This document shows positions 661-43,349 of a DNA stretch of 64,000 nucleotides, piece after piece. Position 1 is the stretch's first letter; each line of letters begins with the position of its first letter. The DNA is from Lama guanicoe (Eukaryota), in assembly GCA_013239625.1 (NCBI GenBank), contig MU055549.1, forward strand, positions 6,823,693 through 6,887,692, in the 5' to 3' direction. The translations under genes and the position numbers were made by a program. A model generated the notes under the pieces. The model ran no database searches and was not told the origin of the DNA. It worked only from the letters and a program-made list of their open reading frames with translations.

Positions 661-3600
661 TTTGTGAAAGGCAAGCACCTTTTAAATTGGGTTCTGCTGA
701 GAGCTTTGGAGAGAAACTGTTTTGCTCTGTTGCTGCCCCCTGTCACTGACCCCTCTGCAAAAGGGGACCCACTGTGGGCTCGAGAAATGCCAGTCACCCA
801 GGGGCGTGGTCAGCATTGCTCAGAGGGACGCCCCTTGGGCACCTGTGCCAGGCCTCCTCCCACGCACGGCGGCCGGGCAAGGCCAGCGCAGGGGCCGAGA
901 AGCAGCCTGCCCCGTCTTCTGGGGCCTGGTGGACCTGGGTGCCACTTCCGGACACTTGCCAGGCTTTGTGCTTCATAAACATCATGGTTCTAGTAAATGT
1001 TTTGTTGGTTTATTAATGATTTGTGTGAACAAGAATCTGCTTAGGAAGAGAACCCTCCGAGAGGTGAGAGGGGGAGACCCTAGCAGAGCTTTGCACCCAC
1101 CCCACACAGGTTGTGATGCCTGTTGTGGAAGTGTCAAAGGCCCAGTTATGTTATCATGTTGTTTGTCTTTTAAAATGTACTCTGTCTTGTAGTGCACTTT
1201 ATTTTACTTTTTATTTTACTGATGCATTAGTTAATAATTCTTCCTTCCTTGGGCAGAGAGCCTGTGGCTTACATGTTTTTGTCTTCAGCGCCTGCCATCA
1301 TCCCTGCAGGCAGGAAGTAATCACTGGATGCTGGCTTGTTGAATGAATGAGCACAACTCTTGTCCCATCAGGCTTTTCAGGGATGCCAGCCTGCTGTTGA
1401 CCCTTCACGCAGAGCACCTCAAACTTGGCTTTGGTGTCCAAATACTGACCTTTGACCAGTACCTGTTACATTTCATCCATTCTGATCTTGTCCCCTTACT
1501 CTGCTTTTTTAATAAAACTTTATTATTGTTACTTATAACTCTGAGATGGTTGATGATTGGTGTCCCCTCCCCTGGGCTCACCCCTGGCTGAAGAGTCAAG
1601 TGCTACTCGTTTTTCGTGAGCCTTTCTGCTCTTGTACGTTTGACAGCTTCTCCAGATGAGCCTCTTGACCAGGTGAGTCCCCTTCGACAGGAGGCGAAGG
1701 CCAGCCCGCGGGTGGATTTGGGAGGTGCTCTGAGGCCTGGCTGTAGAGATGCTCTGCTGACTTAGTGAAATGAGCTTCCTGAGAGCAAGACAAGCCTGTA
1801 CCAAAACCCGGTTCTGACGGCTCCACGGGGGACTATGATAATAACAGGACAGCAGCGGCCGCCGCGGGCATGTTTAATGGTATTTCAGGGTCTTGGGTGT
1901 GTTGTGGACAAACGGTGGAGTGAACCTGTTTCTTCTGGGGCTTGGGCCATTTCTGATGAGGAAGATGCATTCTCACTTGTGAAAGTTGGGCTCCCTCTCT
2001 CTCAAGGCTCTTTGAGTCTTGCTTAGAGCTGTCAGGATACCCAGGGACGGCTCTGGAAGAGTTCAGCAGGGCTCTTACCTTTCCTTTAAGCTGGGTGAAT
2101 CTGGCTGGCCGTGTCATTTCCTCTTTAGCCCCCTCGAGGTCTTTGCTCTGAGCAGCAGGAGGCCCGGGGTTGTCATATCCAGAGTGCTTAGAAGGAAGTG
2201 GAGATGGTTTGCAAATGAGGCGCCCCTCCCTTCTCCCGCCTCCACGCCCTGCCAAAAAATAAAGCAGGCGCCCAAGACACAATAAGCAGCTGCTCCCCCA
2301 AGCTCCTTCTGTTCATCCCATGGCCAGTTCTAAGTAATTCAGAGCAGAATCCCTGGGCTTCACTTTGAATTAGGACCTCAGGGAAGCCCTGCTTACAGGA
2401 GCCTCTTTCTCTTCCTAAAGAATCAGCAGTCTGGGGCTGTTGTGGGCCTTCTGCAGACAGATGGCTGTTGTTACACATACAGTGGCTGCCTCGCCACGGC
2501 GCTGCCACTGATGGCCAGAGTCCTCTTTGTAGAGTGTCCTGCCCATTGGAAGCCCCCTGAGAAGTACCAGAGAGGTGGCTTTGCGAACTTGACTGAGGGG
2601 TGCCGTGGGGTTCGGGTGCGCCTGCTGTTATGACAGACCTGTCTGGTGGCAGAGTGCCTCTGAAGAGCTGTGTGTTGGCAGACGACCGCGTTCTTGAACG
2701 TGTGGCAGAGCTCGCAGTGGGAAGGGGGTGGGGTGGGGGGAGAAGCCTAATGTAGCTTGGTTAGCCTGTCTGGTGCACCTCTACACCAGACACTGTAAGA
2801 CAGGTTGGGAGAAACGACTCAGCTGGATCAGGAGGGTGAAGTCGTCCTGGTGTGTGAGCTGAGGTCAGCCAGGGTGTGACTTCTGAGTGAGTGGCAGATG
2901 GGAAACCTGGTTCTCCTGTCCCTAACCGTTCCTGCAGAGCTCTTGTCCCCTCCTGCGTCACCTCCAGTGTGCCAGTGTGATGCTGTTTGGGGCCACCAGC
3001 CTCCAGGCCCCTGAGATAAAGAGATGGCTGCCCTCCCAGCTGTGTCCCAGGTGCCAGCTGCCGAGAGATTATGTCCCCTCTGTGTGGCGGCCTGGGGGTT
3101 CGCTGAGATCAGCCCTGGTCTGGGGTCCGGGGAGGGGGGTTAGAACAGCAACGCTTCTCCTGCCCGAGGAGCTTCCGGATCCAGCTGGCGTGGTGGGCGT
3201 GTAGCCTGGGCTGGGGGTGGATCGTCTTGCAGGAGGAAGAGGAGGTCACTGTCTGTGGGCCCAAAAAGTCCATAAACATTTTGGAAAGGAAGAGGATATT
3301 CTTGTTTCAGGAGGGAGGAGGTGAAGGTGTGAAACCTGGCGAGTGACTAACTTGCCGGCCTTCCAAGAAACTCCTGAATTCAGAATGTTGTTTACGTCGC
3401 CGAAAGACACCAAGGTGCCCCTGTGTGCTTGAGGAATGAGCTGGGAAGATGCACTTGCACAAACACCCCCATATGCCTCCAGAGATATGTAAGGGGGGGC
3501 AACCCCACCTCCCCGACCCCGGAACCCAGGTGTTACCTGTCCCCAGAGAACAGCAGGGTGGCTTCCTGCTCCCCGCTCGGCTGTACAGAGGTCACAGCTA

Positions 3601-3825
3601 AGGCTCCCGGTGCAGCGACTGACAATTTAGCCTTTGCCGGCATCCGTTTCCTGGGACCTTGAACTCTGCAGGTCTGGCTGAGCAGGACCGGGAAGCCTGG
3701 CAGACACACGGCCACCAGAGCAGCTGCCCCAGGACGGGCGTCCTCAGCTCTCCTCATCCTCTCTGACCGCACACGTCGCCTTCAGGTCGTCTTCAGCTCT
3801 GTCACCGAGTCTCAGGCTCAGTCGA

Positions 3826-4050
3826 GTTCCCATTTGCAGGTCACAGGTGAGGACACTGAGGCTGGGAGAGGCAGCCCCACCTGGCCTGAGCCTGCAGCCG
3901 GTGTGTGGCTGCCCGTGGACGCTCAGGCAGAGCCCGTCTGGCCTGGCCTTCCACTTGTCAGGTGAGGGAACCGGGGCCCAGAGACGGGAAGTGACTTGTC
4001 AGACGGGCCAGAACTGCTCAGGGCAGAGCCAGGGCCACAACCCGTGTTTC
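3826..4050 (-). mobile_element. MIR SINE fragments (duplicated at ~10190-10390)
   Basis: cccatttgcag...aggtgaggacactgaggct and aggtgagggaaccggggcccagagacgggaagtgacttgtc resemble the antisense MIR core. Confidence 0.65.
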
Positions 4051-5079
4051 CTGAGTCCTCCTCTCTGCACACAGGCCACCCTGCCTCTTTTCATTTTTGT
4101 TTTTTCTTTAACCCCTCTTCTCTTTGGGGTTTGAATCATGTTTTGATTAAACTCACTGTGCTGTAAGTAGGTCTGACTGAAGGACACGTCATGGGCGTCT
4201 TAGGCTAAGTGGCTTAGCCTTTCAGTAGATTATCTCTGGGGCCCTGCCGTGTCTCCCGTCCTCTGTTCTCTGCCCTCCTCTCCCTCGCCCTGGTTTGGAG
4301 AAGGCGGCGTCTAGTCTGTGCTCAGTAAGTACCGGTCCTCCTCCCCTCCCTACCCCCGTCCTTCGTTTCCTTCCTTTTGCGTTGGCTCAGCAAGTTCTCG
4401 TCCGTGGTGCGCTCTTCTTTCGGAGTCTTTGGAGGGTGAAAACGACGGGGACGGTAGCGAGAATTGCGGGAGTGCTGATAGGAACCTCGCCTGTCAGTTA
4501 CTTCTCGTTGATAAATGAGCTCTTGACAAGTCTTGCGTGCAGTTGGCTTCAGTTTCAAGAAGCAACACAGGCTGTCTCGTTCCCATGTTCGGATTTGTTT
4601 TGGCTCTGGGTCTCAGCACTTCCATGTCCCTGAATAATGTCCTTCCTCCCTCTCCTCTTGAAATGTTATTTGCTTAAAGAAACAGAAGACCCCTCCGACA
4701 CTGTGAGAGTGACTGTGTGAAGTCCCAGGGCACAGAGTCCCAGTTGGGTTCAGCAGCTCATTTTACTGTTTTGTTTTGTTTCCCTCCATTAAGAACGTCT
4801 TATAAGGGAGCCTGGGCCACTTTGTTCAGCCCAGGGCACAGGGTGGGTCCCTTTCTAGCCAGGTAATGTGACTGCCAGTCCTTCCCTGAGTGTGGGCCTG
4901 ACCTGAAGGTCTAGTCCAGGGAACGTCTGTTTGTCCCAGTTACTGAAGAAAACACCGCCCAGGATGCACCTTACTCGGGGTGGGGGCCAGCGGGTGGGGT
5001 GAGCGCACCTCCTCTAAGCACAGCAGGGGCTTTATTCTTACAGCAAGAAGGTATTGCACCCTCCAGAGTCCGATGCAGC

Positions 5080-6400
5080 CACGCGTCAGCTGTGTGACTT
5101 TAACCAGGTCGTGTGCCTCTCTGAGCCTAGTTTCCTCACTTGTCACACACAAACGGGAACCCGAGCGAGCCTGAGGCTCAGTAATGGATTTGACTGTCCA
5201 GCAGCCACACCTGGTGCTTGGAGGATGACAGGCTCATTCCCTGCCCACTCCCAGCAGCTCTTGCTGGAGCTGTGGAGACATGATCTCTTAGCCAGTTTGC
5301 AAGCACTTAACAAGGGCCTGCTGTCTGCTGGAAACTGTGCTCACCTCAGGACTTAAGTACCTCTAGGCACCTCTTAAGGTGCCCCACCTTACTGTCTTGA
5401 CTCCCTTAACTTCCCTACTTAACTGTGAGTATTTGATTGCTCAGTTAAACTGACCAAACGCTGAAGCACAGATGCTAGATTTGCAACGCACCCCTTCTCT
5501 CCAAGCTGCCCCTGCGGCACCTCGGGCCACACCTCAACCTCCTGGACATAACACTGCACTTGGGGTTCCACAGGCGGGGAGTGGGGAGGCGAGACGGTGG
5601 GAGTGAAACATAACGTTGCTGCTTTCCGTCCCTAAGGGTGAGGGTGGGCAGCCAGGCACCATGTGAGAAGTGCCTTCCAGGAAAGCCAGGGTGCTCCCAG
5701 GCCCGGGGGAGAGGCACTGGCTTCTTACTACATCAGCCAGAATCTGCGTCCATCGGCCCCCGTCTCCCTGGGCCTAGGCCTCCCGCTGCCCCTCCACTGT
5801 GGCCCACCCTGCTCTTCTCTGCAAGTCCACTCCCAGGGCGTTCACGGGGAGCCCTCCACACGTGTAGTCTGGGTGTGGACCTGCCTCAGTCCTCTGGTCA
5901 CTGTCTGTTCCCTGAGTCAATGACAAAAACGGGGACGAGCACTGGACTCGAGGTCCAGAAGTCATGCTTCCATTCCCAGCTCGGCCCGGACGAGCTGCGG
6001 CACCCTGGATGAGCTGTTTAACTGTGCTCTGCGTCATGATAGGATAGCAGTTATCTTTGTTCTGCCCACCTCGAGTGGAAAGTTAAGGTTGGTAAGACGG
6101 GGCACTTTAAGAAGTGCCTGGAGGTACTGAAGTCCTCAGGTGAGCACAGTTCCCAGCAGAGCTTAGCCGCTTGCAAACTGGCTAACAGATCGTGTCTTCA
6201 CAGCTCCAGCAGGAGCTGCTGGGCGGGGGCAGGGAACGTGCTTGTGAATCCTACAAGCACCTCACTAGGGTGTGGCTGCTGGACAGTCAAGTCCATTACT
6301 GAGTCTCAGGCTCACTTGGGATCTCGTTTGTGTGTGACAGGTGAGGAAACTAGGCTCGCAGGGGAGAATGGCCTCGCTAAAGCCACACAGCTGATGTGTG
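5080..6400. repeat. Diverged long inverted repeat: arms ~5080-5415 and ~6075-6400, spacer ~660 bp
   Basis: The reverse complement of 6075-6400 aligns to 5080-5415, e.g. ctcagtaatggatttgactgtccagcagccacac versus gtgtggctgctggacagtcaagtccattactgag. Roughly 80% identity by eye, with a few indels. Confidence 0.92.
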
Positions 6401-6434
6401 TAAGATCCTTATGACGAAGTTTACAGATCCTGGA

Positions 6435-6620
6435 GTAGAAGCGTTAGTGGTTAAGACAGAGACTTTGGGACTCAGCAGATGTGGCCTGAGCCCTCGTTCT
6501 ACCCTTCACAGCTGGGTGACCTTGGGCCTGGGCCTCCGCTGCCCCCCTGTAAAGCGGAAAAACATTCACAGGGATGCTCTGAGGATACGGTCAGCACAGG
6601 GCCTGGCACTGTTGCTGTGA
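6435..6620 (+). mobile_element. MIR SINE (duplicated at ~12776-12961)
   Basis: tagtggttaagacagagactttggga...agctgggtgaccttggg...ctgtaaa...tgaggat...cacagggcctggcac follows the order of the MIR consensus. Confidence 0.7.
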
Positions 6621-7944
6621 CTGGTCTTTCATTCATGCTTGTTATAAGGTGGACTCCGTGTCACCTGTTACTTCTGCAAATAAGAAGAAGATACTAGGAA
6701 AATGGTGAACAAAAATGTATTATTTCTTTTTCTGGGTACTGCCTCTCTTCTGGAGTTTCCCTAAATCAGTAGGGTTTGGTACTGAGCATGTCCATGGTGT
6801 TCAACTACTGACTTCTAAGAGGTTTCATTTGTCTGTTTCTCTGTCGGTGTATTGAAGGTGGTGAAGGCAGAGCCGTCTTTTTTTGGTGAACTTTTAGTAG
6901 GACCTGAAGACTTGGGAACCTGGGCTGAGGGTGTTAGTTTAAATGTTCCACTGCAGTCTGGGAAACACATTCTCTGGGCATGTCCTCTTATTGAAACTCC
7001 AGACTCTCTTTCCAATATCAACTCGGTCTGGGAAAGTATGGGCTCTTGATAAAGTTCCTAGGCAGCGTTTAACTTTTATCCTTTAAACTCAGATGACTTA
7101 GCTGTACAAACAGCAAGCAAAAGGCGTCCCCAGGCAGATTAAATTGCCTTTTCTTGGCAGATAGGAACCTTGACTCCCGACCACAGGGTTCCTCTCTCCT
7201 CCCCTCCCTTCTCTGGGTTTGTCACAGGACCTGGCAGGACGCAGCATGACCCACCGAGAGATGCACTTCCCCAAATGTTCAGTCAGTTTGCTCCTAGATC
7301 CTGCCCACAGATTGCATCGGTCACACCAACAGCTGAAGTTATGAAAGTTTCAAAGTGCATACGGCCTTCCCGAAGACCTTGTAGGATTGCTGTTTCCCTC
7401 CCATTTCCTTTGCTTAATGGGAGGGGGAAATGGAAGCTCTGAAAGGAATGGCTTGCTCGCGCCATCAGGAAAATCACTGTCAGTGGCCAAGGTTATGTTT
7501 AGGTTTTGCTCTGGGTCCTGCGTTTGGGGTGATGAGATGTTCTTCTGCTATAAAACTAACTTGTACAAGTAGTAAACACAGGATAAGGATATTAAAAGGA
7601 GGAAACGTTTAATTGCCGGGGCAATTTCCAGTGTGGTCAGTTTCTTTTTAAGGGGTAGCTCTTCCAGATGCAATACAGAAGCGTTTGGTAAATTCCTATA
7701 ATCTTCTTAAGAGTTATATAGAATTTTAGACTTTACAACACTTTTCTGCATATATAAAGTCATTTAGCGTGCACCAGGCAGGTTTCCCATTTGCCAGAAA
7801 CTAAGAGTCTCGACCACAGTGATATCAGACAGCTGGGTTCAAGGGTAGCAGATGAATGAAGGCACATTGGAGATGGCAGAGCAAGAACAAGATAGGAAGG
7901 ACTCGTGTGAGAAAGTTGTCCCCTGTCCCTGCAGTGGTCTGAGG

Positions 7945-8130
7945 AAGCAGACCTGGGTTCAGATCTTGCCCTCACCCCTGCTAGCTGTAGGATCTTGGGC
8001 AAATGCTTGATTTATTTTCTTGGAGCCTCAGTCTTCTCATCTGGAAAATGGGAATACTACTGACGACAATGTGTGCTCGCAGGAATTGGAGAGATGAAAT
8101 GAGAAGAGCCCATAGTTGGTGCTCAGGGAG
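7945..8130 (+). mobile_element. MIR SINE (duplicated at ~14286-14471)
   Basis: agacctgggttcagatc...ctagctgtaggatcttgggcaa...gcctcagtcttctcatctggaaaatgggaata. Confidence 0.75.
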
Positions 8131-9169
8131 GTGGGAGGTGGAGGCTGGGAGTGCAGCTGGGTGGAGGCTCGAGGGGGCGGAGTGCCAGGGGGTGGATGGA
8201 GGCCTTTTGCTGACTGCGGGCAGTGTCACTTGGCACCCCTCAACCATCTGTCTGGGCCCTCCCACCCTGCAGGCCTGGCTCTGGGCACAGTGCTGAGACG
8301 CTCATGCTGTCATTGGGCAGACATACCCTTGGGGTAAGGACTGCGGCTGTGGACAGGGCCCTCTACCACCACGTCTGCACCCTGCACCCAGGGGCTGTGA
8401 AGGTGTCAGGGGGTTAGGGTCACTGGTCAGTAGAAAGTCTGACTTTGCCTTTTGCTCTTCCAGTGGAAGTCCTAGCGAGGATGAGCCACTGAGTGGAGGC
8501 TCCTGGGTCACAGCCGGGGAGCGTGTGTCCCCTGAATAGGCTGGACACCTGCTGAGGGGAGACCCTTGCCGAGCCCTCGTCCAGCAGACACCCGGCACCC
8601 AGATGTGTGTGGAGGCCTAGCGGGGACCCTCTGTCTGCCGTGAGCGCTGAGCAGGGAGTCTCAGTGGAGAGGTGGGAGGTAAATTCGAGGACCGGGAAGT
8701 GACAAGATTTAAACAGACGCCAGGGAGACTGCCGTTGTGGAGGGATGATGTTGGCAGGCAGAGATGCTGAGCACAGTGGCTACTTGTGTAAAGGGGAGTG
8801 GACGCTGGTGTCTGGGGCCTCCTGTGTGCTAAGCTCTTTGTACACATTTTCTTACTGACGTCTCCCAGCAGTCCCCAGAGCGAAGGTGTTCTCTCTGTCA
8901 TTTTAAAGATGAGGAAGCCAAAGTCAGGTGACTTTCAAAGTGACATTGAAGCTGCCCAATGCCTTCGGACGTGTCCTCGCCCCACCTTGCATATGGGCTT
9001 GTGGGTACAGACAGTGGCTTGAGGGCTTTTAAAAATAAATTGTATATGTGTGTGCGGTACAGTTCACTCTTCGGTGTTTAGTTCTGTTGAGTTTTGACAA
9101 ATGCGTAGATGGAGTGTGCTTCTTAAATTCAAAATTTTTACACAGAAATTTTTTTCTGTTTCTTTAATT

Positions 9170-9318
9170 TTGTATCTATATAAGATGACAGACTAAACTT
9201 ACTGTGGTCATCATTTCATGATGTATGTAAGTCAGATTGTTACGCTGTACACCTTGAACTGATACAGTAAACTTGAACTTATGTCTCAGTAAAACTGGAA
9301 GAAAAATTAAAAGAAAAT
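9170..9318 (+). mobile_element. L1MA-type 3' end (duplicated at ~15511-15659)
   Basis: taaacttactgtggtcatcatttcatgatgtatgtaagtcagattgttacgctgtacaccttgaact...tatgtctcagtaaaactggaagaaaaa, followed by an A-rich tail. Confidence 0.75.
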
Positions 9319-9319
9319 T

Positions 9320-9930
9320 TGAGGTTGTTATAAATTCACACAAACATAGTGGTTGTAAGAAATAATAGAAATCCTGTGTACCGTTTACTCAGGGTCCCTC
9401 AACAGTAACATGTTGCAAAACCGTAGTGCGAATGACAAGCAGGAAATTGACACTGATGCAGATACAGAACATTTCCATCTCCTCGCGGCTCCCTGCTGCT
9501 GCCTTTCCCTAACCACGCCCTCCTCCCTCCCACTCCCGTACCCCCATCCCAACCCCCCAGCCACTACTCGTCTCGTCTTCCTTTCTATAATTTTGTCACT
9601 TCAAAAACGCCATGTAAATGGAACAATGCAATAATTAACCTTTAGGGATTGGGATTTTTCGCTCAGCATAATTCCTTGGAGATGCATCCAAGTAGGTACC
9701 AACCGTTCATCCCTTTCTACTGCTGAGGAGTGTTCCATGGTGTGCTTGTTCCGCAATTTGTTTAGCCAGTCATCCGTTGAGGGACATCTGGGTTGTTTCC
9801 TGGTTTTGGCTGTTATGGATAAAGCTGTTATGAACATTCATGTGCAGGTTTTTGTGTGAACATAAGTTTGCGCTGCTCTGGGATGAATGCCAAGGCGTGC
9901 GCTTGCTGGGCTGTACGGTAGTTGCTTGTG
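9320..9930 (-). mobile_element. Ancient L1 (L1MB/MC-like) 3' region (duplicated at ~15661-16271)
   Basis: Antisense L1 motifs (catccgttgagggacatctgggttgtttcctggttttggctgttatggataaagctgttatgaacattc). The minus-strand ORF 9601..9837 (MFITALSITAKTRKQPRCPSTDDWLNKL) resembles the L1 ORF2 C-terminus. Confidence 0.85.
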
Positions 9931-10171
9931 GGGCTTTGAGGGATGTGTTTGGGATGGAGAAGCAGGGTTGGGGGTCTTGCTGCAGAGGGCCTGGGTGGGA
10001 CGTACAGGCCTGGGGGCTCCTCCCTGACATCCTGGGTGGGCTGCTTCACCTGCCTGTGAAATGGGGATAATTGAACCTGTCATGTAACTCATGCATATAA
10101 AGGTATACAGTAGGTGCTCAGTAGATGGAAACAGTTGTTAATATGAGTTACGAGAAGACCCACCAGGCCAA

Positions 10172-13100
10172 TCTCAGGCTCAGTCGAGTTCCCATTTGCA
10201 GGTCACAGGTGAGGACACTGAGGCTGGGAGAGGCAGCCCCACCTGGCCTGAGCCTGCAGCCGGTGTGTGGCTGCCCGTCTGGCCTGGCCTTCCACTTGTC
10301 AGGTGAGGGAACCGGGGCCCAGAGACGGGAAGTGACTTGTCAGACGGGCCAGAACTGCTCAGGGCAGAGCCAGGGCCACAACCCGTGTTTCCTGAGTCCT
10401 CCTCTCTGCACACAGGCCACCCTGCCTCTTTTCATTTTTGTTTTTTCTTTAACCCCTCTTCTCTTTGGGGTTTGAATCATGTTTTGATTAAACTCACTGT
10501 GCTGTAAGTAGGTCTGACTGAAGGACACGTCATGGGCGTCTTAGGCTAAGTGGCTTAGCCTTTCAGTAGATTATCTCTGGGGCCCTGCCGTGTCTCCCGT
10601 CCTCTGTTCTCTGCCCTCCTCTCCCTCGCCCTGGTTTGGAGAAGGCGGCGTCTAGTCTGTGCTCAGTAAGTACCGGTCCTCCTCCCCTCCCTACCCCCGT
10701 CCTTCGTTTCCTTCCTTTTGCGTTGGCTCAGCAAGTTCTCGTCCGTGGTGCGCTCTTCTTTCGGAGTCTTTGGAGGGTGAAAACGACGGGGACGGTAGCG
10801 AGAATTGCGGGAGTGCTGATAGGAACCTCGCCTGTCAGTTACTTCTCGTTGATAAATGAGCTCTTGACAAGTCTTGCGTGCAGTTGGCTTCAGTTTCAAG
10901 AAGCAACACAGGCTGTCTCGTTCCCATGTTCGGATTTGTTTTGGCTCTGGGTCTCAGCACTTCCATGTCCCTGAATAATGTCCTTCCTCCCTCTCCTCTT
11001 GAAATGTTATTTGCTTAAAGAAACAGAAGACCCCTCCGACACTGTGAGAGTGACTGTGTGAAGTCCCAGGGCACAGAGTCCCAGTTGGGTTCAGCAGCTC
11101 ATTTTACTGTTTTGTTTTGTTTCCCTCCATTAAGAACGTCTTATAAGGGAGCCCGGGCCACTTTGTTCAGCCCAGGGCACAGGGTGGGTCCCTTTCTAGC
11201 CAGGTAATGTGACTGCCAGTCCTTCCCTGAGTGTGGGCCTGACCTGAAGGTCTAGTCCAGGGAACGTCTGTTTGTCCCAGTTACTGAAGAAAACACCGCC
11301 CAGGATGCACCTTACTCGGGGTGGGGGCCAGCGGGTGGGGTGAGCGCACCTCCTCTAAGCACAGCAGGGGCTTTATTCTTACAGCAAGAAGGTATTGCAC
11401 CCTCCAGAGTCCGATGCAGCCACGCGTCAGCTGTGTGACTTTAACCAGGTCGTGTGCCTCTCTGAGCCTAGTTTCCTCACTTGTCACACACAAACGGGAA
11501 CCCGAGCGAGCCTGAGGCTCAGTAATGGATTTGACTGTCCAGCAGCCACACCTGGTGCTTGGAGGATGACAGGCTCATTCCCTGCCCACTCCCAGCAGCT
11601 CTTGCTGGAGCTGTGGAGACATGATCTCTTAGCCAGTTTGCAAGCACTTAACAAGGGCCTGCTGTCTGCTGGAAACTGTGCTCACCTCAGGACTTAAGTA
11701 CCTCTAGGCACCTCTTAAGGTGCCCCACCTTACTGTCTTGACTCCCTTAACTTCCCTACTTAACTGTGAGTATTTGATTGCTCAGTTAAACTGACCAAAC
11801 GCTGAAGCACAGATGCTAGATTTGCAACGCACCCCTTCTCTCCAAGCTGCCCCTGCGGCACCTCGGGCCACACCTCAACCTCCTGGACATAACACTGCAC
11901 TTGGGGTTCCACAGGCAGGGAGTGGGGAGGCGAGACGGTGGGAGTGAAACATAACGTTGCTGCTTTCCGTCCCTAAGGGTGAGGGTGGGCAGCCAGGCAC
12001 CATGTGAGAAGTGCCTTCCAGGAAAGCCAGGGTGCTCCCAGGCCCGGGGGAGAGGCACTGGCTTCTTACTACATCAGCCAGAATCTGCGTCCATCGGCCC
12101 CCGTCTCCCTGGGCCTAGGCCTCCCGCTGCCCCTCCACTGTGGCCCACCCTGCTCTTCTCTGCAAGTCCACTCCCAGGGCGTTCACGGGGAGTCCTCCAC
12201 ACGTGTAGTCTGGGTGTGGACCTGCCTCAGTCCTCTGGTCACTGTCTGTTCCCTGAGTCAATGACAAAAACGGGGACGAGCACTGGACTCGAGGTCCAGA
12301 AGTCATGCTTCCATTCCCAGCTCGGCCCGGACGAGCTGCGGCACCCTGGATGAGCTGTTTAACTGTGCTCTGCGTCATGATAGGATAGCAGTTATCCTTG
12401 TTCTGCCCACCTCGAGTGGAAAGTTAAGGTTGGTAAGACGGGGCACTTTAAGAAGTGCCTGGAGGTACTGAAGTCCTCAGGTGAGCACAGTTCCCAGCAG
12501 AGCTTAGCCGCTTGCAAACTGGCTAACAGATCGTGTCTTCACAGCTCCAGCAGGAGCTGCTGGGCGGGGGCAGGGAACGTGCTTGTGAATCCTACAAGCA
12601 CCTCACTAGGGTGTGGCTGCTGGACAGTCAAGTCCATTACTGAGTCTCAGGCTCACTTGGGATCTCGTTTGTGTGTGACAGGTGAGGAAACTAGGCTCGC
12701 AGGGGAGAATGGCCTCGCTAAAGCCACACAGCTGATGTGTGTAAGATCCTTATGACGAAGTTTACAGATCCTGGAGTAGAAGCGTTAGTGGTTAAGACAG
12801 AGACTTTGGGACTCAGCAGATGTGGCCTGAGCCCTCGTTCTACCCTTCACAGCTGGGTGACCTTGGGCCTGGGCCTCCGCTGCCCCCCTGTAAAGCGGAA
12901 AAACATTCACAGGGATGCTCTGAGGATACGGTCAGCACAGGGCCTGGCACTGTTGCTGTGACTGGTCTTTCATTCATGCTTGTTATAAGGTGGACTCCGT
13001 GTCACCTGTTACTTCTGCAAATAAGAAGAAGATACTAGGAAAATGGTGAACAAAAATGTATTATTTCTTTTTCTGGGTACTGCCTCTCTTCTGGAGTTTC

Positions 13101-16100
13101 CCTAAATCAGTAGGGTTTGGTACTGAGCATGTCCATGGTGTTCAACTATTGACTTCTAAGAGGTTTCATTTGTCTGTTTCTCTGTCGGTGTATTGAAGGT
13201 GGTGAAGGCAGAGCCGTCTTTTTTTGGTGAACTTTTAGTAGGACCTGAAGACTTGGGAACCTGGGCTGAGGGTGTTAGTTTAAATGTTCCACTGCAGTCT
13301 GGGAAACACATTCTCTGGGCATGTCCTCTTATTGAAACTCCAGACTCTCTTTCCAATATCAACTCGGTCTGGGAAAGTATGGGCTCTTGATAAAGTTCCT
13401 AGGCAGCGTTTAACTTTTATCCTTTAAACTCAGATGACTTAGCTGTACAAACAGCAAGCAAAAGGCGTCCCCAGGCAGATTAAATTGCCTTTTCTTGGCA
13501 GATAGGAACCTTGACTCCCGACCACAGGGTTCCTCTCTCCTCCCCTCCCTTCTCTGGGTTTGTCACAGGACCTGGCAGGACGCAGCATGACCCACCGAGA
13601 GATGCACTTCCCCAAATGTTCAGTCAGTTTGCTCCTAGATCCTGCCCACAGATTGCATCGGTCACACCAACAGCTGAAGTTATGAAAGTTTCAAAGTGCA
13701 TACGGCCTTCCCGAAGACCTTGTAGGATTGCTGTTTCCCTCCCATTTCCTTTGCTTAATGGGAGGGGGAAATGGAAGCTCTGAAAGGAATGGCTTGCTCG
13801 CGCCATCAGGAAAATCACTGTCAGTGGCCAAGGTTATGTTTAGGTTTTGCTCTGGGTCCTGCGTTTGGGGTGATGAGATGTTCTTCTGCTATAAAACTAA
13901 CTTGTACAAGTAGTAAACACAGGATAAGGATATTAAAAGGAGGAAACGTTTAATTGCCGGGGCAATTTCCAGTGTGGTCAGTTTCTTTTTAAGGGGTAGC
14001 TCTTCCAGATGCAATACAGAAGCGTTTGGTAAATTCCTATAATCTTCTTAAGAGTTATATAGAATTTTAGACTTTACAACACTTTTCTGCATATATAAAG
14101 TCATTTAGCGTGCACCAGGCAGGTTTCCCATTTGCCAGAAACTAAGAGTCTCGACCACAGTGATATCAGACAGCTGGGTTCAAGGGTAGCAGATGAATGA
14201 AGGCACATTGGAGATGGCAGAGCAAGAACAAGATAGGAAGGACTCGTGTGAGAAAGTTGTCCCCTGTCCCTGCAGTGGTCTGAGGAAGCAGACCTGGGTT
14301 CAGATCTTGCCCTCACCCCTGCTAGCTGTAGGATCTTGGGCAAATGCTTGATTTATTTTCTTGGAGCCTCAGTCTTCTCATCTGGAAAATGGGAATACTA
14401 CTGACGACAATGTGTGCTCGCAGGAATTGGAGAGATGAAATGAGAAGAGCCCATAGTTGGTGCTCAGGGAGGTGGGAGGTGGAGGCTGGGAGTGCAGCTG
14501 GGTGGAGGCTCGAGGGGGCGGAGTGCCAGGGGGTGGATGGAGGCCTTTTGCTGACTGCGGGCAGTGTCACTTGGCACCCCTCAACCATCTGTCTGGGCCC
14601 TCCCACCCTGCAGGCCTGGCTCTGGGCACAGTGCTGAGACGCTCATGCTGTCATTGGGCAGACATACCCTTGGGGTAAGGACTGCGGCTGTGGACAGGGC
14701 CCTCTACCACCACGTCTGCACCCTGCACCCAGGGGCTGTGAAGGTGTCAGGGGGTTAGGGTCACTGGTCAGTAGAAAGTCTGACTTTGCCTTTTGCTCTT
14801 CCAGTGGAAGTCCTAGCGAGGATGAGCCACTGAGTGGAGGCTCCTGGGTCACAGCCGGGGAGCGTGTGTCCCCTGAATAGGCTGGACACCTGCTGAGGGG
14901 AGACCCTTGCCGAGCCCTCGTCCAGCAGACACCCGGCACCCAGATGTGTGTGGAGGCCTAGCGGGGACCCTCTGTCTGCCGTGAGCGCTGAGCAGGGAGT
15001 CTCAGTGGAGAGGTGGGAGGTAAATTCGAGGACCGGGAAGTGACAAGATTTAAACAGACGCCAGGGAGACTGCCGTTGTGGAGGGATGATGTTGGCAGGC
15101 AGAGATGCTGAGCACAGTGGCTACTTGTGTAAAGGGGAGTGGACGCTGGTGTCTGGGGCCTCCTGTGTGCTAAGCTCTTTGTACACATTTTCTTACTGAC
15201 GTCTCCCAGCAGTCCCCAGAGCGAAGGTGTTCTCTCTGTCATTTTAAAGATGAGGAAGCCAAAGTCAGGTGACTTTCAAAGTGACATTGAAGCTGCCCAA
15301 TGCCTTCGGACGTGTCCTCGCCCCACCTTGCATATGGGCTTGTGGGTACAGACAGTGGCTTGAGGGCTTTTAAAAATAAATTGTATATGTGTGTGCGGTA
15401 CAGTTCACTCTTCGGTGTTTAGTTCTGTTGAGTTTTGACAAATGCGTAGATGGAGTGTGCTTCTTAAATTCAAAATTTTTACACAGAAATTTTTTTCTGT
15501 TTCTTTAATTTTGTATCTATATAAGATGACAGACTAAACTTACTGTGGTCATCATTTCATGATGTATGTAAGTCAGATTGTTACGCTGTACACCTTGAAC
15601 TGATACAGTAAACTTGAACTTATGTCTCAGTAAAACTGGAAGAAAAATTAAAAGAAAATTTGAGGTTGTTATAAATTCACACAAACATAGTGGTTGTAAG
15701 AAATAATAGAAATCCTGTGTACCGTTTACTCAGGGTCCCTCAACAGTAACATGTTGCAAAACCGTAGTGCGAATGACAAGCAGGAAATTGACACTGATGC
15801 AGATACAGAACATTTCCATCTCCTCGCGGCTCCCTGCTGCTGCCTTTCCCTAACCACGCCCTCCTCCCTCCCACTCCCGTACCCCCATCCCAACCCCCCA
15901 GCCACTACTCGTCTCGTCTTCCTTTCTATAATTTTGTCACTTCAAAAACGCCATGTAAATGGAACAATGCAATAATTAACCTTTAGGGATTGGGATTTTT
16001 CGCTCAGCATAATTCCTTGGAGATGCATCCAAGTAGGTACCAACCGTTCATCCCTTTCTACTGCTGAGGAGTGTTCCATGGTGTGCTTGTTCCGCAATTT

Positions 16101-16511
16101 GTTTAGCCAGTCATCCGTTGAGGGACATCTGGGTTGTTTCCTGGTTTTGGCTGTTATGGATAAAGCTGTTATGAACATTCATGTGCAGGTTTTTGTGTGA
16201 ACATAAGTTTGCGCTGCTCTGGGATGAATGCCAAGGCGTGCGCTTGCTGGGCTGTACGGTAGTTGCTTGTGGGGCTTTGAGGGATGTGTTTGGGATGGAG
16301 AAGCAGGGTTGGGGGTCTTGCTGCAGAGGGCCTGGGTGGGACGTACAGGCCTGGGGGCTCCTCCCTGACATCCTGGGTGGGCTGCTTCACCTGCCTGTGA
16401 AATGGGGATAATTGAACCTGTCATGTAACTCATGCATATAAAGGTATACAGTAGGTGCTCAGTAGATGGAAACAGTTGTTAATATGAGTTACGAGAAGAC
16501 CCACCAGGCCA
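10172..16511 (+). repeat. Tandem segmental duplication, copy 2 (6340 bp)
   Basis: Matches copy 1 apart from a 21-bp deletion at about 10273 and at least five substitutions (11154, 11917, 12193, 12397, 13149). Unique sequence resumes at 16512 (gggcagagtctg). Confidence 0.97.
11421..12741. repeat. Second copy of the long inverted repeat: arms ~11421-11756 and ~12416-12741
   Basis: Copied with the tandem duplication (offset 6341). Confidence 0.92.
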
Positions 16512-18340: not shown

Positions 18341-19704
18341 CGAACCCTCCTGCCTATTAGGGAAGAAGGGGGTGGGGGGAGGGCAGGTCACCCCCGGGCC
18401 TTGGGGCAATGGCTGGCCGCCCCAAAACTGAATCAAGGTTTCACCCAGAGGGAAGACGGCTGCCATCAGGCCTCGCCTCTGTCTCTGAGCGGCACAAAGG
18501 GTCCCTTTGAAGAGAGAGTCCCCAAGTGCCCCTCGGGGCACTGTCCCGCTCCCGAGCCAAACATCCAGGGGGCTGGCGAGCATTCCTGGCTCAGCTTTCT
18601 GGCCAGACTCGGAGGAGTGATCTGAAATTCTTTGCTAGGGCAGATCATACTTGGTCAGAACGTGTCACTTCTATATTGATGTGGCTTTGAAGCTCTGCAG
18701 GTCTCCCAGTGTGACCTGGGAGCCTGTTGTCTCCACCGGGCCTCCCCCCTGAACAGTCAATCCTTTGAAAATGTATTGATTTTCCTCCTCCCCTTCCCTG
18801 CTTTTGCACTTTGGATGAACCTTGTTTTCGAAGAACAGTAGAAGGTAATTTTCCTGGGCTTGCCAGCTGGCCCGTAATTGAGCAATTTCAATAACACCCA
18901 CTGTAAAGTCTAATCGAAGTACACAGGAAAATATGATTTACAATCTGGACAGCAAGTAAATACCAGGGCGCAATTAATTTTTACACAGAGTAGCAGATTC
19001 TAGAACATTTTCCTGCACTGACCGGTTTGTTTTTAATTACAGGTTGGGAACGGCCTTTTTATTTAGTTTTTACTCTTATTATCATTACTTTTTGCTTTCT
19101 AACACTTTTTAGGTTCCTTGGACCTGTCTGGCTTTCTCTGCAGGCGTGACCACAGATGAGTGGGAAGGAGACAGGATCAGAGATTAATTTATAAGGTGTG
19201 ACTTTCCCGCCCTGAACTGAACGGCCACACTCTTGGGGCGTCTGCTTGTGGGAGATGCCGGTAGATGAGGGAGATGCCCCGGCTGTGTAGAGTGATGGTA
19301 CCAGCCGCTCCTGGGAGCTCAGAGGGGTGTGCGCAGACCCTGCAAGGGCTGTGGCTTGGTTTGGCACATTCTGAGGAAGGGGACAGAGCTACAGAGGCCC
19401 CCAGTGTTGCAAATGTGTCATGGTGGAAACGTGGTGCTTCCAAGGATGGGAAGTACGTGCCTTTAAATGGACCCTCCTGGTTCTTCCAGAAGCTTCTGTT
19501 CAGACCTGGGTGGACAGGAGCCACCTTGCTGGCTGCCGAGCTCTGACCCCTTGGGATCTGACTGCAGGGTGAGCACATATCTGGCTTCAGCCAACCTTGG
19601 GTTGTCTGCAGAACCAGCTCAGTGTAAGAAGTCAGACAACTTGAGGACACTTTGGGGACAGCATACTGAGGAGCCCAGACCTGGAGATCTGTCATAAAGC
19701 TTCC

Positions 19705-19915
19705 ACGTGCAGTTACTAAGTACTACATATAAAAAAGATAAGCAGCAGGTTTCTACTGTACAGTGCAGGGAAATAGATTCAATGCCTTGTAATAACCTGT
19801 AATGAGAAATAATATGAAAAGGAATATTTATATACATATATAACTGAATCACCATGCTCTACACCAGAAATCAATGTAACATTGTAAACCCACTATACTT
19901 CAATAAAAAAATAAA
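19705..19915 (+). mobile_element. 5'-truncated cetartiodactyl (camelid-like) L1 3' end with A-rich tail
   Basis: actacatataaaaaagataagcagcagg...tataactgaatcaccatgctctacaccagaaatcaatgtaacattgtaaacccactatacttcaataaaaaaataaaa. Imperfect flanking repeat ataaagcttcca / ataaaagttcca as a possible target-site duplication. Confidence 0.85.
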
Positions 19916-20161: not shown

Positions 20162-20342
20162 GGAGCTGACGACACGTGGCTGTTTCCTGGAAGAGCCCCA
20201 CCCCGAGGGTGAGTGGCTGGGAAGGAGCTGCTTCTGCTGACAACGTCACCTGGAAGGCGCCCAGGAGGTCTGCCCAAGTCTGCTGACCTGAAGATGGCTC
20301 GTGCCCACCCTGAGCTGGCGCCCAGCGCCTGAGGTCCTTACC
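20162..20342 (+). other. FAM53B: FAM53B start-codon exon, 5' UTR portion
   Basis: A polypyrimidine tract and acceptor (ctctttgcctttcttttgtctttgcag) end at 20161. The exon runs 181 nt to the ATG at 20343. The boundary is inferred from the splice consensus only. Confidence 0.75.
20294..20332 (+). promoter_or_regulatory. Upstream ORF in the FAM53B 5' UTR (MARAHPELAPSA*)
   Basis: aagATGg has A at -3 and G at +4. Twelve codons follow, then TGA at 20330-20332, 10 nt before the main ATG. Whether it is translated is inferred. Confidence 0.6.
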
Positions 20343-20420
20343 ATGGTGATGATCCTGAGTCAGAGCCTCGACAAGCAGGGAGCTGACCCCGTAGCATGCA
20401 GGACCTTCAACCCTGAGCTG
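20343..20420 (+). CDS. FAM53B: FAM53B (Simplet) first coding exon, MVMILSQSLDKQGADPVACRTFNPEL
   Basis: Kozak accATGg; 78 nt; phase-0 donor CTG|gtaagg at 20421. The peptide resembles the FAM53B N-terminus as I recall it (human MVMVLSESLSTRGADSIACGTFSREL). Too short for the ORF track. Confidence 0.93.
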
Positions 20421-21399
20421 GTAAGGACCCAGTGGGCCTCATTTCTCTGATGACCCTTTTGAGGCCCATTGTCCAGGTGGGGCTGTGGACTGAGCAAGCA
20501 GATTAGCAGACCGAGTCCATAGGGCCTGCGAGCGGAGCTCTGTGAGACATGGCAGGTGGGGTGGTGGGGCTGGCGGGGCCAAGTCACCCAGGGCCTGGCT
20601 GTGTCCTCACAAGAAGGAAGTAGCCGGCAGAGAGTGGAGTCCTCTGGTGAGCGAGGAGGGAAGGCCAGCGCCCTGGTAAATAACACCAAGCCGCCCCTGC
20701 CGGGCTGAGGCGGACATTCCTCCTGGTCTCCACCCGGTAAGGGAGGTGATTTCTGGAAGCGGGGTGGTAACCGAGTTGGGGCTAAGATAAGGCCGTGCCT
20801 CCAGAGGGCGGTCAGAGTTAGAGCTGCCACCTCAGGAATGTCAAGAGTGGGAGATGATGGCGAAGAAGGTGCGGCCCGGTGGCCAGGGTGGTGATGGCCC
20901 CCACGGGTGAGCTGGGTGCAGGGGCAGCCAGTCTGTACTTCTGGGACTGAGAACAAAGCGGCCTCTTAGCCCTCCTTCCAGCCTTGATTCCTCAGGAGCT
21001 AGTGGGCTGCCCTCTGAAGAGGGAACAGGAAGAAGTCCCACTCGGGCATTTTGCACGTGGGCTTAGTCCCCAGGACTCTGCCGCTTCTGTGTCAGGGATT
21101 CATCGTCCAGGGTCACACTGCCTGGCGCCCCTCCTGGCTCCCCTCACAGCCCCTTATGGGAACCCACACAAACACCTCGTGGGCTTCCTCCCCCGATCTC
21201 ACACCAGCTTCCACACCAAGAGTGGGGTCTCAGGTCCCTGTAGGAGCTTGTGAAAGCCACCGAGACCTGTGTCCACCCTGTGGGCCTCACGGAGTGCCCT
21301 GGGTGTGTCAGGCCCTGGGCTGGAGGAACTCCAAAGATGAGCCAGGTCTCTGCCCATCGCTGCTTCCTTTCCAATTTGCATTGACTGTATATCTGTAAT

Positions 21400-42480: not shown

Positions 42481-42570
42481 TCCTGCTTAAGACGGGTTCT
42501 TGGTGAGGAGATAGAGGACTGGCATGAAGGCCTTCTCAAATCCTGTTTCTCTTTGTCATTTATGAACCAG

Positions 42571-43349
42571 AAAATGACAGATGGCGAGACCTGGACAGGA
42601 AGTGCTCTCTTCAGATTGACCAGCCGAGCGCCAGCATCTGGGAGTGCCTGCCTGAGAAGTGTCAGGACAGCGCTCTGTGGCACCGGGAGGCCGCCACCGC
42701 CTGCGCGGTCACCAACCTGATCAAAGACCTCAGCCTCAGTGACCACAACGGGAACCCCTCCGCGCCCCCCAGCAAGCGCCAGTGCCGGTCACTGTCCTTC
42801 TCCGACGAGATGTCCAGCTGCCGAACATCATGGAGGCCCTTGGGGTCCAAAGTCTGGACGCCTGTGGAAAAGAGGCGCTGTTACAGCGGGGGCAGCGTCC
42901 AGCGCTATTCCAATGGCTTCAGCACCATGCAGCGGAGCTCCAGCTTCAGCCTCCCTTCCCGGGCCAACGTGCTCTCCTCGCCCTGTGACCAGGCGGCCTT
43001 TCACCACCAATTCGGTGGTCAGCCCTGCCAAGGGGTGCCCGGCTTCGCCATCTGTGGACAGGCGAGAGACATCTGGGGCCCCAACCCGAGCCTGGTGGGT
43101 GGGGGCCGGCTTGACATGCAACGGTCCCTCTCCTGCTCGCACGAGCAGTTCTCGTTCGCGGAGTACTGTCCACCCTCAGCCAACAGCACACCTGCCTCAA
43201 CGCCAGAGCTGGGGAGACGCTCTAGCGGGCTCTCCCGCAGCCGCTCCCAGCCGTGTGTCCTTAACGATAAGAAGGTCGGCGTTAAGCGGCGGCGCCCTGA
43301 AGAGGTGCAGGAGCCGAGGCCTTCCCTGGACCTTGCCAAGATGGCACAG
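42571..43349 (+). CDS. FAM53B: FAM53B large coding exon, (E)NDRWRDLDRKCSLQIDQPSASIWECLPEK...SAPPSKRQCRSLSFSDEMSSCRTSWRPLGSKVWTPVEKRRCYSGGS...RSRSQPCVLNDKKVGVKRRRPEEVQEPRPSLDLAKMAQ
   Basis: Acceptor tttatgaaccag ends at 42570; 779 nt; donor CAG|gtaaga at 43350. In frame with ORF 42810..43676. Contains the FAM53 conserved blocks (APPSKRQCRSLS, WRPxxSKVWTPVEKRRCYSGGS, RSRSQPCVL, basic KRRRP, RPSLDLxKM). 78+55+779 = 912 nt = 304 codons. No terminal exon was found in the window. Confidence 0.97.

Follow-up and report, generated by a model that had tools for sequence, protein, structure and literature searches.

The window considered here, a 64-kb stretch of the Lama guanicoe assembly, carries coding exons of a gene of the FAM53 family, two of which orient the locus:

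20162..20420, + strand: first coding exon of the FAM53-family gene, with an ATG at 20343, 78 coding nt, a GT donor at 20421 and a putative acceptor
42558..43349 (ends approximate), + strand: large coding exon with the Pfam FAM53 domain (PF15242)

The exon near 42.5-43.4 kb matched the Pfam FAM53 model with an E-value of 2.7e-107 (359.5 bits), which confirms the family of the host gene named in the first-pass annotation. The N-terminus, the exon layout and the 78-nt first coding exon suggest the B paralog, and on that footing the gene is putatively FAM53B. A polypyrimidine tract and an AG precede position 20162, where the exon with the start codon likely begins. Far upstream, at window position about -20,370, a CpG-rich edge with terminal GCC repeats adjoins an 855-N gap. 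This edge is likely the promoter and, if so, the doubled unit described below would lie within a first intron about 40 kb long. The nuclear entry of beta-catenin, a role that had been quoted for the host gene, is in print: a review citing Kizil 2014 names FAM53B/Simplet as a mediator of it (PMC4495933). The gene at this locus belongs to the same family according to Pfam, whereas the sequence that is doubled is non-coding intron.

Self-BLAST of the whole window returned one long direct repeat, with 5 mismatches and 1 gap, and global alignment resolved it into the following features:

3810..10170, + strand: copy A of the intronic unit, 6361 bp (self-BLAST and global alignment)
10172..16511, + strand: copy B, 6340 bp (self-BLAST and global alignment)
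3911..3937, + strand: 21-bp segment with GCCCGT microhomology flanks in copy A, missing from copy B near 10273-10279

The near-identical tandem repeat that had been noticed earlier is thus real in the sequence. The copies lie head to tail with a discrete join, and the unit ends 3.65 kb before the putative exon start at 20162, close to the earlier estimate of about 3.6 kb. All of the substitutions between copy A and copy B are transitions (T4813/C11154, G5576/A11917, C5852/T12193, T6056/C12397 and C6808/T13149; 5/6340, or 0.079%), and they fall at offsets 1004, 1767, 2043, 2247 and 2999 within the unit. The gap corresponds to 21 bp missing from copy B near offset 102-122, where two GCCCGT words flank the deletion; the first-pass annotation had not named it. 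The first 3.0 kb of the unit hold all six differences and the remaining 3.36 kb are identical; six of six within the first 47% would be expected with P of about 0.02 (two-sided) if mutations fell uniformly. Copy A is likely one allele, the first 3 kb of copy B are likely the other allele, and the 21-bp difference is likely a heterozygous indel. The unit was not found away from the locus with the two probes used, since the two matches of probe 6600-7900 and the three pieces matched by probe 9960-10400 all lie at the locus. A hidden coding exon inside the unit was also considered and is unsupported, the longest stop-free frames being 134 and 119 aa, although short exons may be present.

The unit had also been credited with a long inverted repeat and with transcription factor motifs that might double the cis-regulatory dose for FAM53B. 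Two features are relevant:

5080..6400, no strand: old local inverted repeat, with arms at about 5080-5392 and 6092-6400 that are 81% identical
6620..7900, no strand: AT-richer stretch that holds a FOX-type word and a TEAD-type word, one of each (word count)

The inverted repeat is present as described, and copy B carries it too, at about 11421-12735. The probed part of its arm had no other copies in 1.9 Mb. The FOX-type word GTAAACA and the TEAD-type word GGAATG each occur once in 6620-7900. The same counts were equalled by 19% and 51%, respectively, of 1473 tiles of the same size, and 9.6% of these tiles hold both words. The motifs are therefore present at chance level and are not enriched above background, so a motif cluster of the kind expected of a duplicated enhancer was not found. 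As nothing marks the unit as an enhancer, the proposal of a doubled regulatory dose is unsupported.

The two copies are separated by a single base:

10171..10171, + strand: lone A between the copies, untemplated (alignment)

The junction had been called gapless, and indeed there is no N at 10171. G is the base that naturally follows the unit on its right side and also the one that precedes it on its left side, and the A is templated by neither. It is likely a one-N placeholder that was converted, as judged from the comparison of joins given below. Public data bear little on the join. Of the words sampled from 9200-11200, twenty of the 24 runs listed (stored as contigs; 7 studies and 4 organisms) contained a share of 0.86-0.94. 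Words of the join and those specific to copy B make up only 86 of 1971 (4.4%), and those of the join alone 31 (1.6%), so such shares are compatible with runs that lack the join and cannot demonstrate its presence. The unit end had no exact match in metagenome contigs, as expected for host DNA.

The surrounding scaffold contains further doubles of this kind. We surveyed one scaffold region, consisting of the window and its flanks (1,904,000 bases; G000:C5617:5803693-7707692), for near-tandem BLAST rows of at least 80 bp and at least 93% identity with a spacing below 5 kb. Six of the 13 rows were at least 1 kb long and at least 99% identical, five of them apart from the double in the FAM53B intron, and their periods were 2325, 5092, 6362 (the FAM53B intron), 2388, 2414 and 1882. 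The other seven rows were short or simple repeats, or a piece of the period-2414 case. Leaving out the FAM53B-intron case, the rate of kb-scale doubles in the 1.904 Mb is 2.6 per Mb (95% CI 0.85-6.1), which extrapolates to about 5,400 genome-wide (1,700-12,600) if the region is typical. For a rough comparison only, since the human figures count polymorphisms against a reference, the long-read count for 1,019 human genomes is 15,295 tandem duplications of any size (PMC12350158), and the median human genome has 7,439 structural variants of all classes (PMC7334194). Pooled SNP divergence between copies was 42/18,158 (0.23%), with a range of 0 to 0.76% for individual doubles. N runs number 11 in the region and measure 52 to 1763 bases; one of them is inside the window and may be a mask. 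The runs mostly border poly-G/C, poly-A/T or GC-rich sequence, an edge pattern that would be that of a short-read assembly.

One type of join recurs among these doubles. A lone untemplated A forms the join of the doubles with periods 5092, 6362 and 2388, the naturally following and preceding bases being T/C, G/G and T/C, respectively; the two doubles that share this join with the FAM53B intron are unrelated to it, kb-scale and within 0.8 Mb, with joins near G000:C5617:6098388 and 7597970. Among the five gapless joins, including that in the FAM53B intron, three thus have a single untemplated A, two have 1-bp overlaps and none is blunt. The overlaps, at periods 1882 and 2414, have an A directly ahead and are readable as X-A-X, which is undiagnostic. 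The copies of period 2325 flank a gap of 914 N. The double of period 2414 has the layout P-X followed by P-Q-X, which suggests that an allele lacking a 1.26-kb segment was stacked with one carrying it. One of seven further loci reached through two Pfam families, about 22 kb in all, contained a perfect double of 358 bp on another scaffold, joined by a 1-bp overlap at an A, again showing that doubles are common. Short doubles behaved differently: the lone A was absent from all four with periods of 43, 102, 108 and 160, whose joins varied, and X-A-X occurred at none of 11 short exact doubles in the 1.904 Mb.

When a fixed A was placed between random ends in a simulation, 55% of the joins appeared as one-base inserts, 29% as blunt and 11% as 1-bp overlaps, while a blunt join gives no inserts. 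The observed numbers (3, 0 and 2 of 5) fit this placeholder model loosely, with an excess of overlaps, and some of the doubles may differ in origin. The chance that all three single-base inserts are A is about 0.09 (hand arithmetic from base frequencies). Small insertions are also found at natural joins (PMC6258378; PMC3439969), and an insertion of 1 bp is an ordinary end-joining scar in the account of PMC6258378. Thus, the lone A by itself proves nothing.

Taken together, the doubled 6.36-kb unit is very probably a false tandem duplication produced by scaffolding and gap filling, with both alleles set down serially. The first-pass annotation had left the choice between an intronic copy number variant and an assembly artefact, and the latter is favoured here. 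Four observations support this reading. The one-A join repeats at two unrelated doubles within 0.8 Mb. Doubles are dense, with five others in 1.904 Mb, one of which flanks an N gap while another looks like two stacked alleles. The divergence between copies (0.23%) matches the divergence between alleles, intron heterozygosity being 0.22-0.32% in the Old World camel data of PMC7468183. The N gaps appear to be of the short-read type, and none of the 11 is shorter than 52 bases. On the other side, no N stands at the join, and the inserted base could be a normal end-joining scar (PMC6258378). The placeholder step in particular is weakened by the finding that poly-G/C tracts show no excess of A as a trace of N-to-A conversion, and by the missing X-A-X at the short exact doubles.

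A possible course of events can be outlined. A segment of intron present once would have been set down a second time as a short-read assembly placed the overlapping ends of two contigs head to tail. The contigs might have broken near a heterozygous site, for which the 21-bp indel about 100 bp past the unit start is a candidate; similarly, a large indel lies 110 bp from the unit start at period 2414, and a cluster of SNPs begins at 119 at period 2388. The scaffolder would then have put the gap size too high, and the gap filler would have overrun into sequence already present, taking the other allele at heterozygous sites. Some short-read pipelines leave an overfilled gap as a single N; such an N may have been kept here and turned into A after the scaffolds were oriented. 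The periods of about 1.9-2.4 and 5.1-6.4 kb may be tied to mate-pair jump sizes; their clustering hints at this, but it is a weaker part of the scheme, and the 358-bp double weakens it further.

False duplications of this general type have been described. Ko et al. (2022) reported adjacent allele-stacked false duplications that are separated by gaps or joined by wrongly filled sequence (PMC9516828). In the terms of that description, the FAM53B-intron double resembles heterotype false duplications in having adjacent copies on one scaffold, none elsewhere with two probes, and what looks like a divergence at the level of alleles. Its differences are confined to one part and the rest is identical, as at the boundary between heterozygous and homozygous sequence, and its sibling doubles are likewise gap-separated or gapless. 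The likeness is drawn from the assembly sequence, while the defining tests of the class are half depth and discordant pairs (PMC9516828). Unlike those cases as described in PMC9516828, the joins here have a lone recurring A and no N, and our literature search found no printed description of a single-N or single-A join signature. Sahlin et al. (bioRxiv 10.1101/025650) indicated that mate-pair contamination inflates scaffolds through wrong gap sizes, which might be how gaps came to be sized too large, so that a filler could run past them. However, their account concerns inflated N gaps and not filled doubles, and the link to our case is ours.

A real tandem duplication in intron 1 of FAM53B, young or polymorphic, is unlikely but has points in its favour. 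End joining, or else template switching, would have produced it and inserted 1 bp, and a later crossover with a single-copy haplotype would have confined the differences to the first 3 kb, a distribution (P about 0.02) that a crossover and an allele block explain equally well. The join is gapless while the assembly retains N gaps elsewhere. Germline tandem duplications formed by NHEJ, MMEJ or MMBIR are similar to this double in their head-to-tail arrangement, non-repetitive breakpoints and 1-bp insertion, small insertions being typical of NHEJ (PMC6258378; PMC12350158), and among the cases of Ko et al. there is also a tandem duplication that is genuine, specific to one allele and of haploid depth (PMC9516828). 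However, one join base common to three of five sites and a density of about 2.6 per Mb would be unexpected for such variants. Both the join type (a lone A at 3/5) and the density (five others in 1.904 Mb) are atypical of independent repair events, with human data and general background as the yardstick for natural duplications. A real duplication leaves the lone A at two unrelated doubles, the density of doubles and the sibling flanking a gap unexplained. Moreover, a real double with an identical stretch of 3.4 kb would usually come out of a short-read assembler in collapsed form, which also argues against it. No FAM53B variant is named in the first part of a camelid CNV preprint (bioRxiv 2025.08.28.672513).

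An artefact of the library is less probable still. An end-to-start join plus an added A is a possible product of mate-pair circularisation ligation, and such circularisation junctions (fragment end to start, with an A overhang) might have been assembled as loops whose period is the fragment length. Consistent with this, the periods fall into two groups, 1.9-2.4 and 5.1-6.4 kb, and the range 200-1800 is empty in the 1.9 Mb (P about 0.016 for a log-uniform null, excluding the FAM53B-intron case). However, the argument from period clusters and size modes is weakened by the 358-bp double elsewhere, and the double around the gap of 914 N is unexplained. Ligation is also strand-symmetric and predicts both A and T on the + strand, whereas three of three were A (weak evidence, 1 in 8). 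Finally, a natural germline process of camelids that yields thousands of kb-scale doubles sealed by a single untemplated A, about 2-3 per Mb, with FAM53B intron 1 as one case, has in its favour that the shared join and the density are truly present in the sequence, but it is very improbable given the A-only strand bias in scaffold orientation, a divergence equal to heterozygosity, one sibling that flanks a gap and one that looks allele-stacked.

As a false duplication, the double in the FAM53B intron is likely absent from the animal. Its biological weight would be small, since nothing marks the unit as an enhancer and the double is likely an artefact. False tandem doubles of kb scale, without a visible gap and often marked by a lone A, seem to be numerous in the Lama guanicoe assembly. 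If the joins were true after all, their density and common A would indicate an unusual mutational process. For quality control, near-identical tandem duplications and doubled exons or enhancers in the Lama guanicoe assembly call for a look at the join, where a lone A would be a warning, before they are given a biological reading.

Several near-identical doubles and three N gaps were found on G000:C5617, the scaffold bearing the window, and are listed here with the flanking scaffold pieces (L-numbers) that contain them.

G000:C5617:6093294-6103479 (L155-L156), 5.09-kb tandem double, copies differing by 7 SNPs
G000:C5617:7595583-7600363 (L135-L136), 2.39-kb tandem double, copies differing by 16 SNPs
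G000:C5617:7655870-7659637 (L141-L142), 1.88-kb double, 0 SNP differences between copies
G000:C5617:6033311-6037046 (L149-L150), 1.41-kb double with copies on both sides of a 914-N gap, 6 SNPs
G000:C5617:7631915-7635489 (L139), segments P-X, then P-Q-X, with a 413-N gap nearby
G000:C5617:6803320 (L004), 855-N gap with GCC repeats and poly-G at its edges

The 5.09-kb and 2.39-kb doubles are each joined by one untemplated A, a base matching neither natural flank, and the 1.88-kb double is joined through a 1-bp overlap. The 1.41-kb double is a classic false duplicate of the gap-flanking type, and the P-X/P-Q-X arrangement likely represents both alleles of a 1.26-kb indel (segment Q), set down in succession.

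Two shorter, perfect doubles were also observed. The 358-bp tandem double at L188:76-792, on another scaffold (G000:C1724) and close to DUF4709 exons, starts inside an A run and is joined by a 1-bp A overlap. The 150-bp double at G000:C5617:7489728-7490037 (in L085) has an untemplated 10-bp insert at its join; its unit size also coincides with a widely used read length.

The window additionally contains an old inverted duplication (5080-5392 and 6092-6400), with arms of ~310 bp, 81% identity and a spacing of 1 kb. Its start presumably falls in a MIR-like piece, and no further copy of the probed part of the arm was found within 1.9 Mb. A short way upstream of the start-codon exon, window 19680-19915 holds a short element with an A-rich tail, which we take to be an L1-like 3' end. 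Further toward the 5' end of the FAM53-family gene, the 855-N gap likely hides its promoter and first exon.
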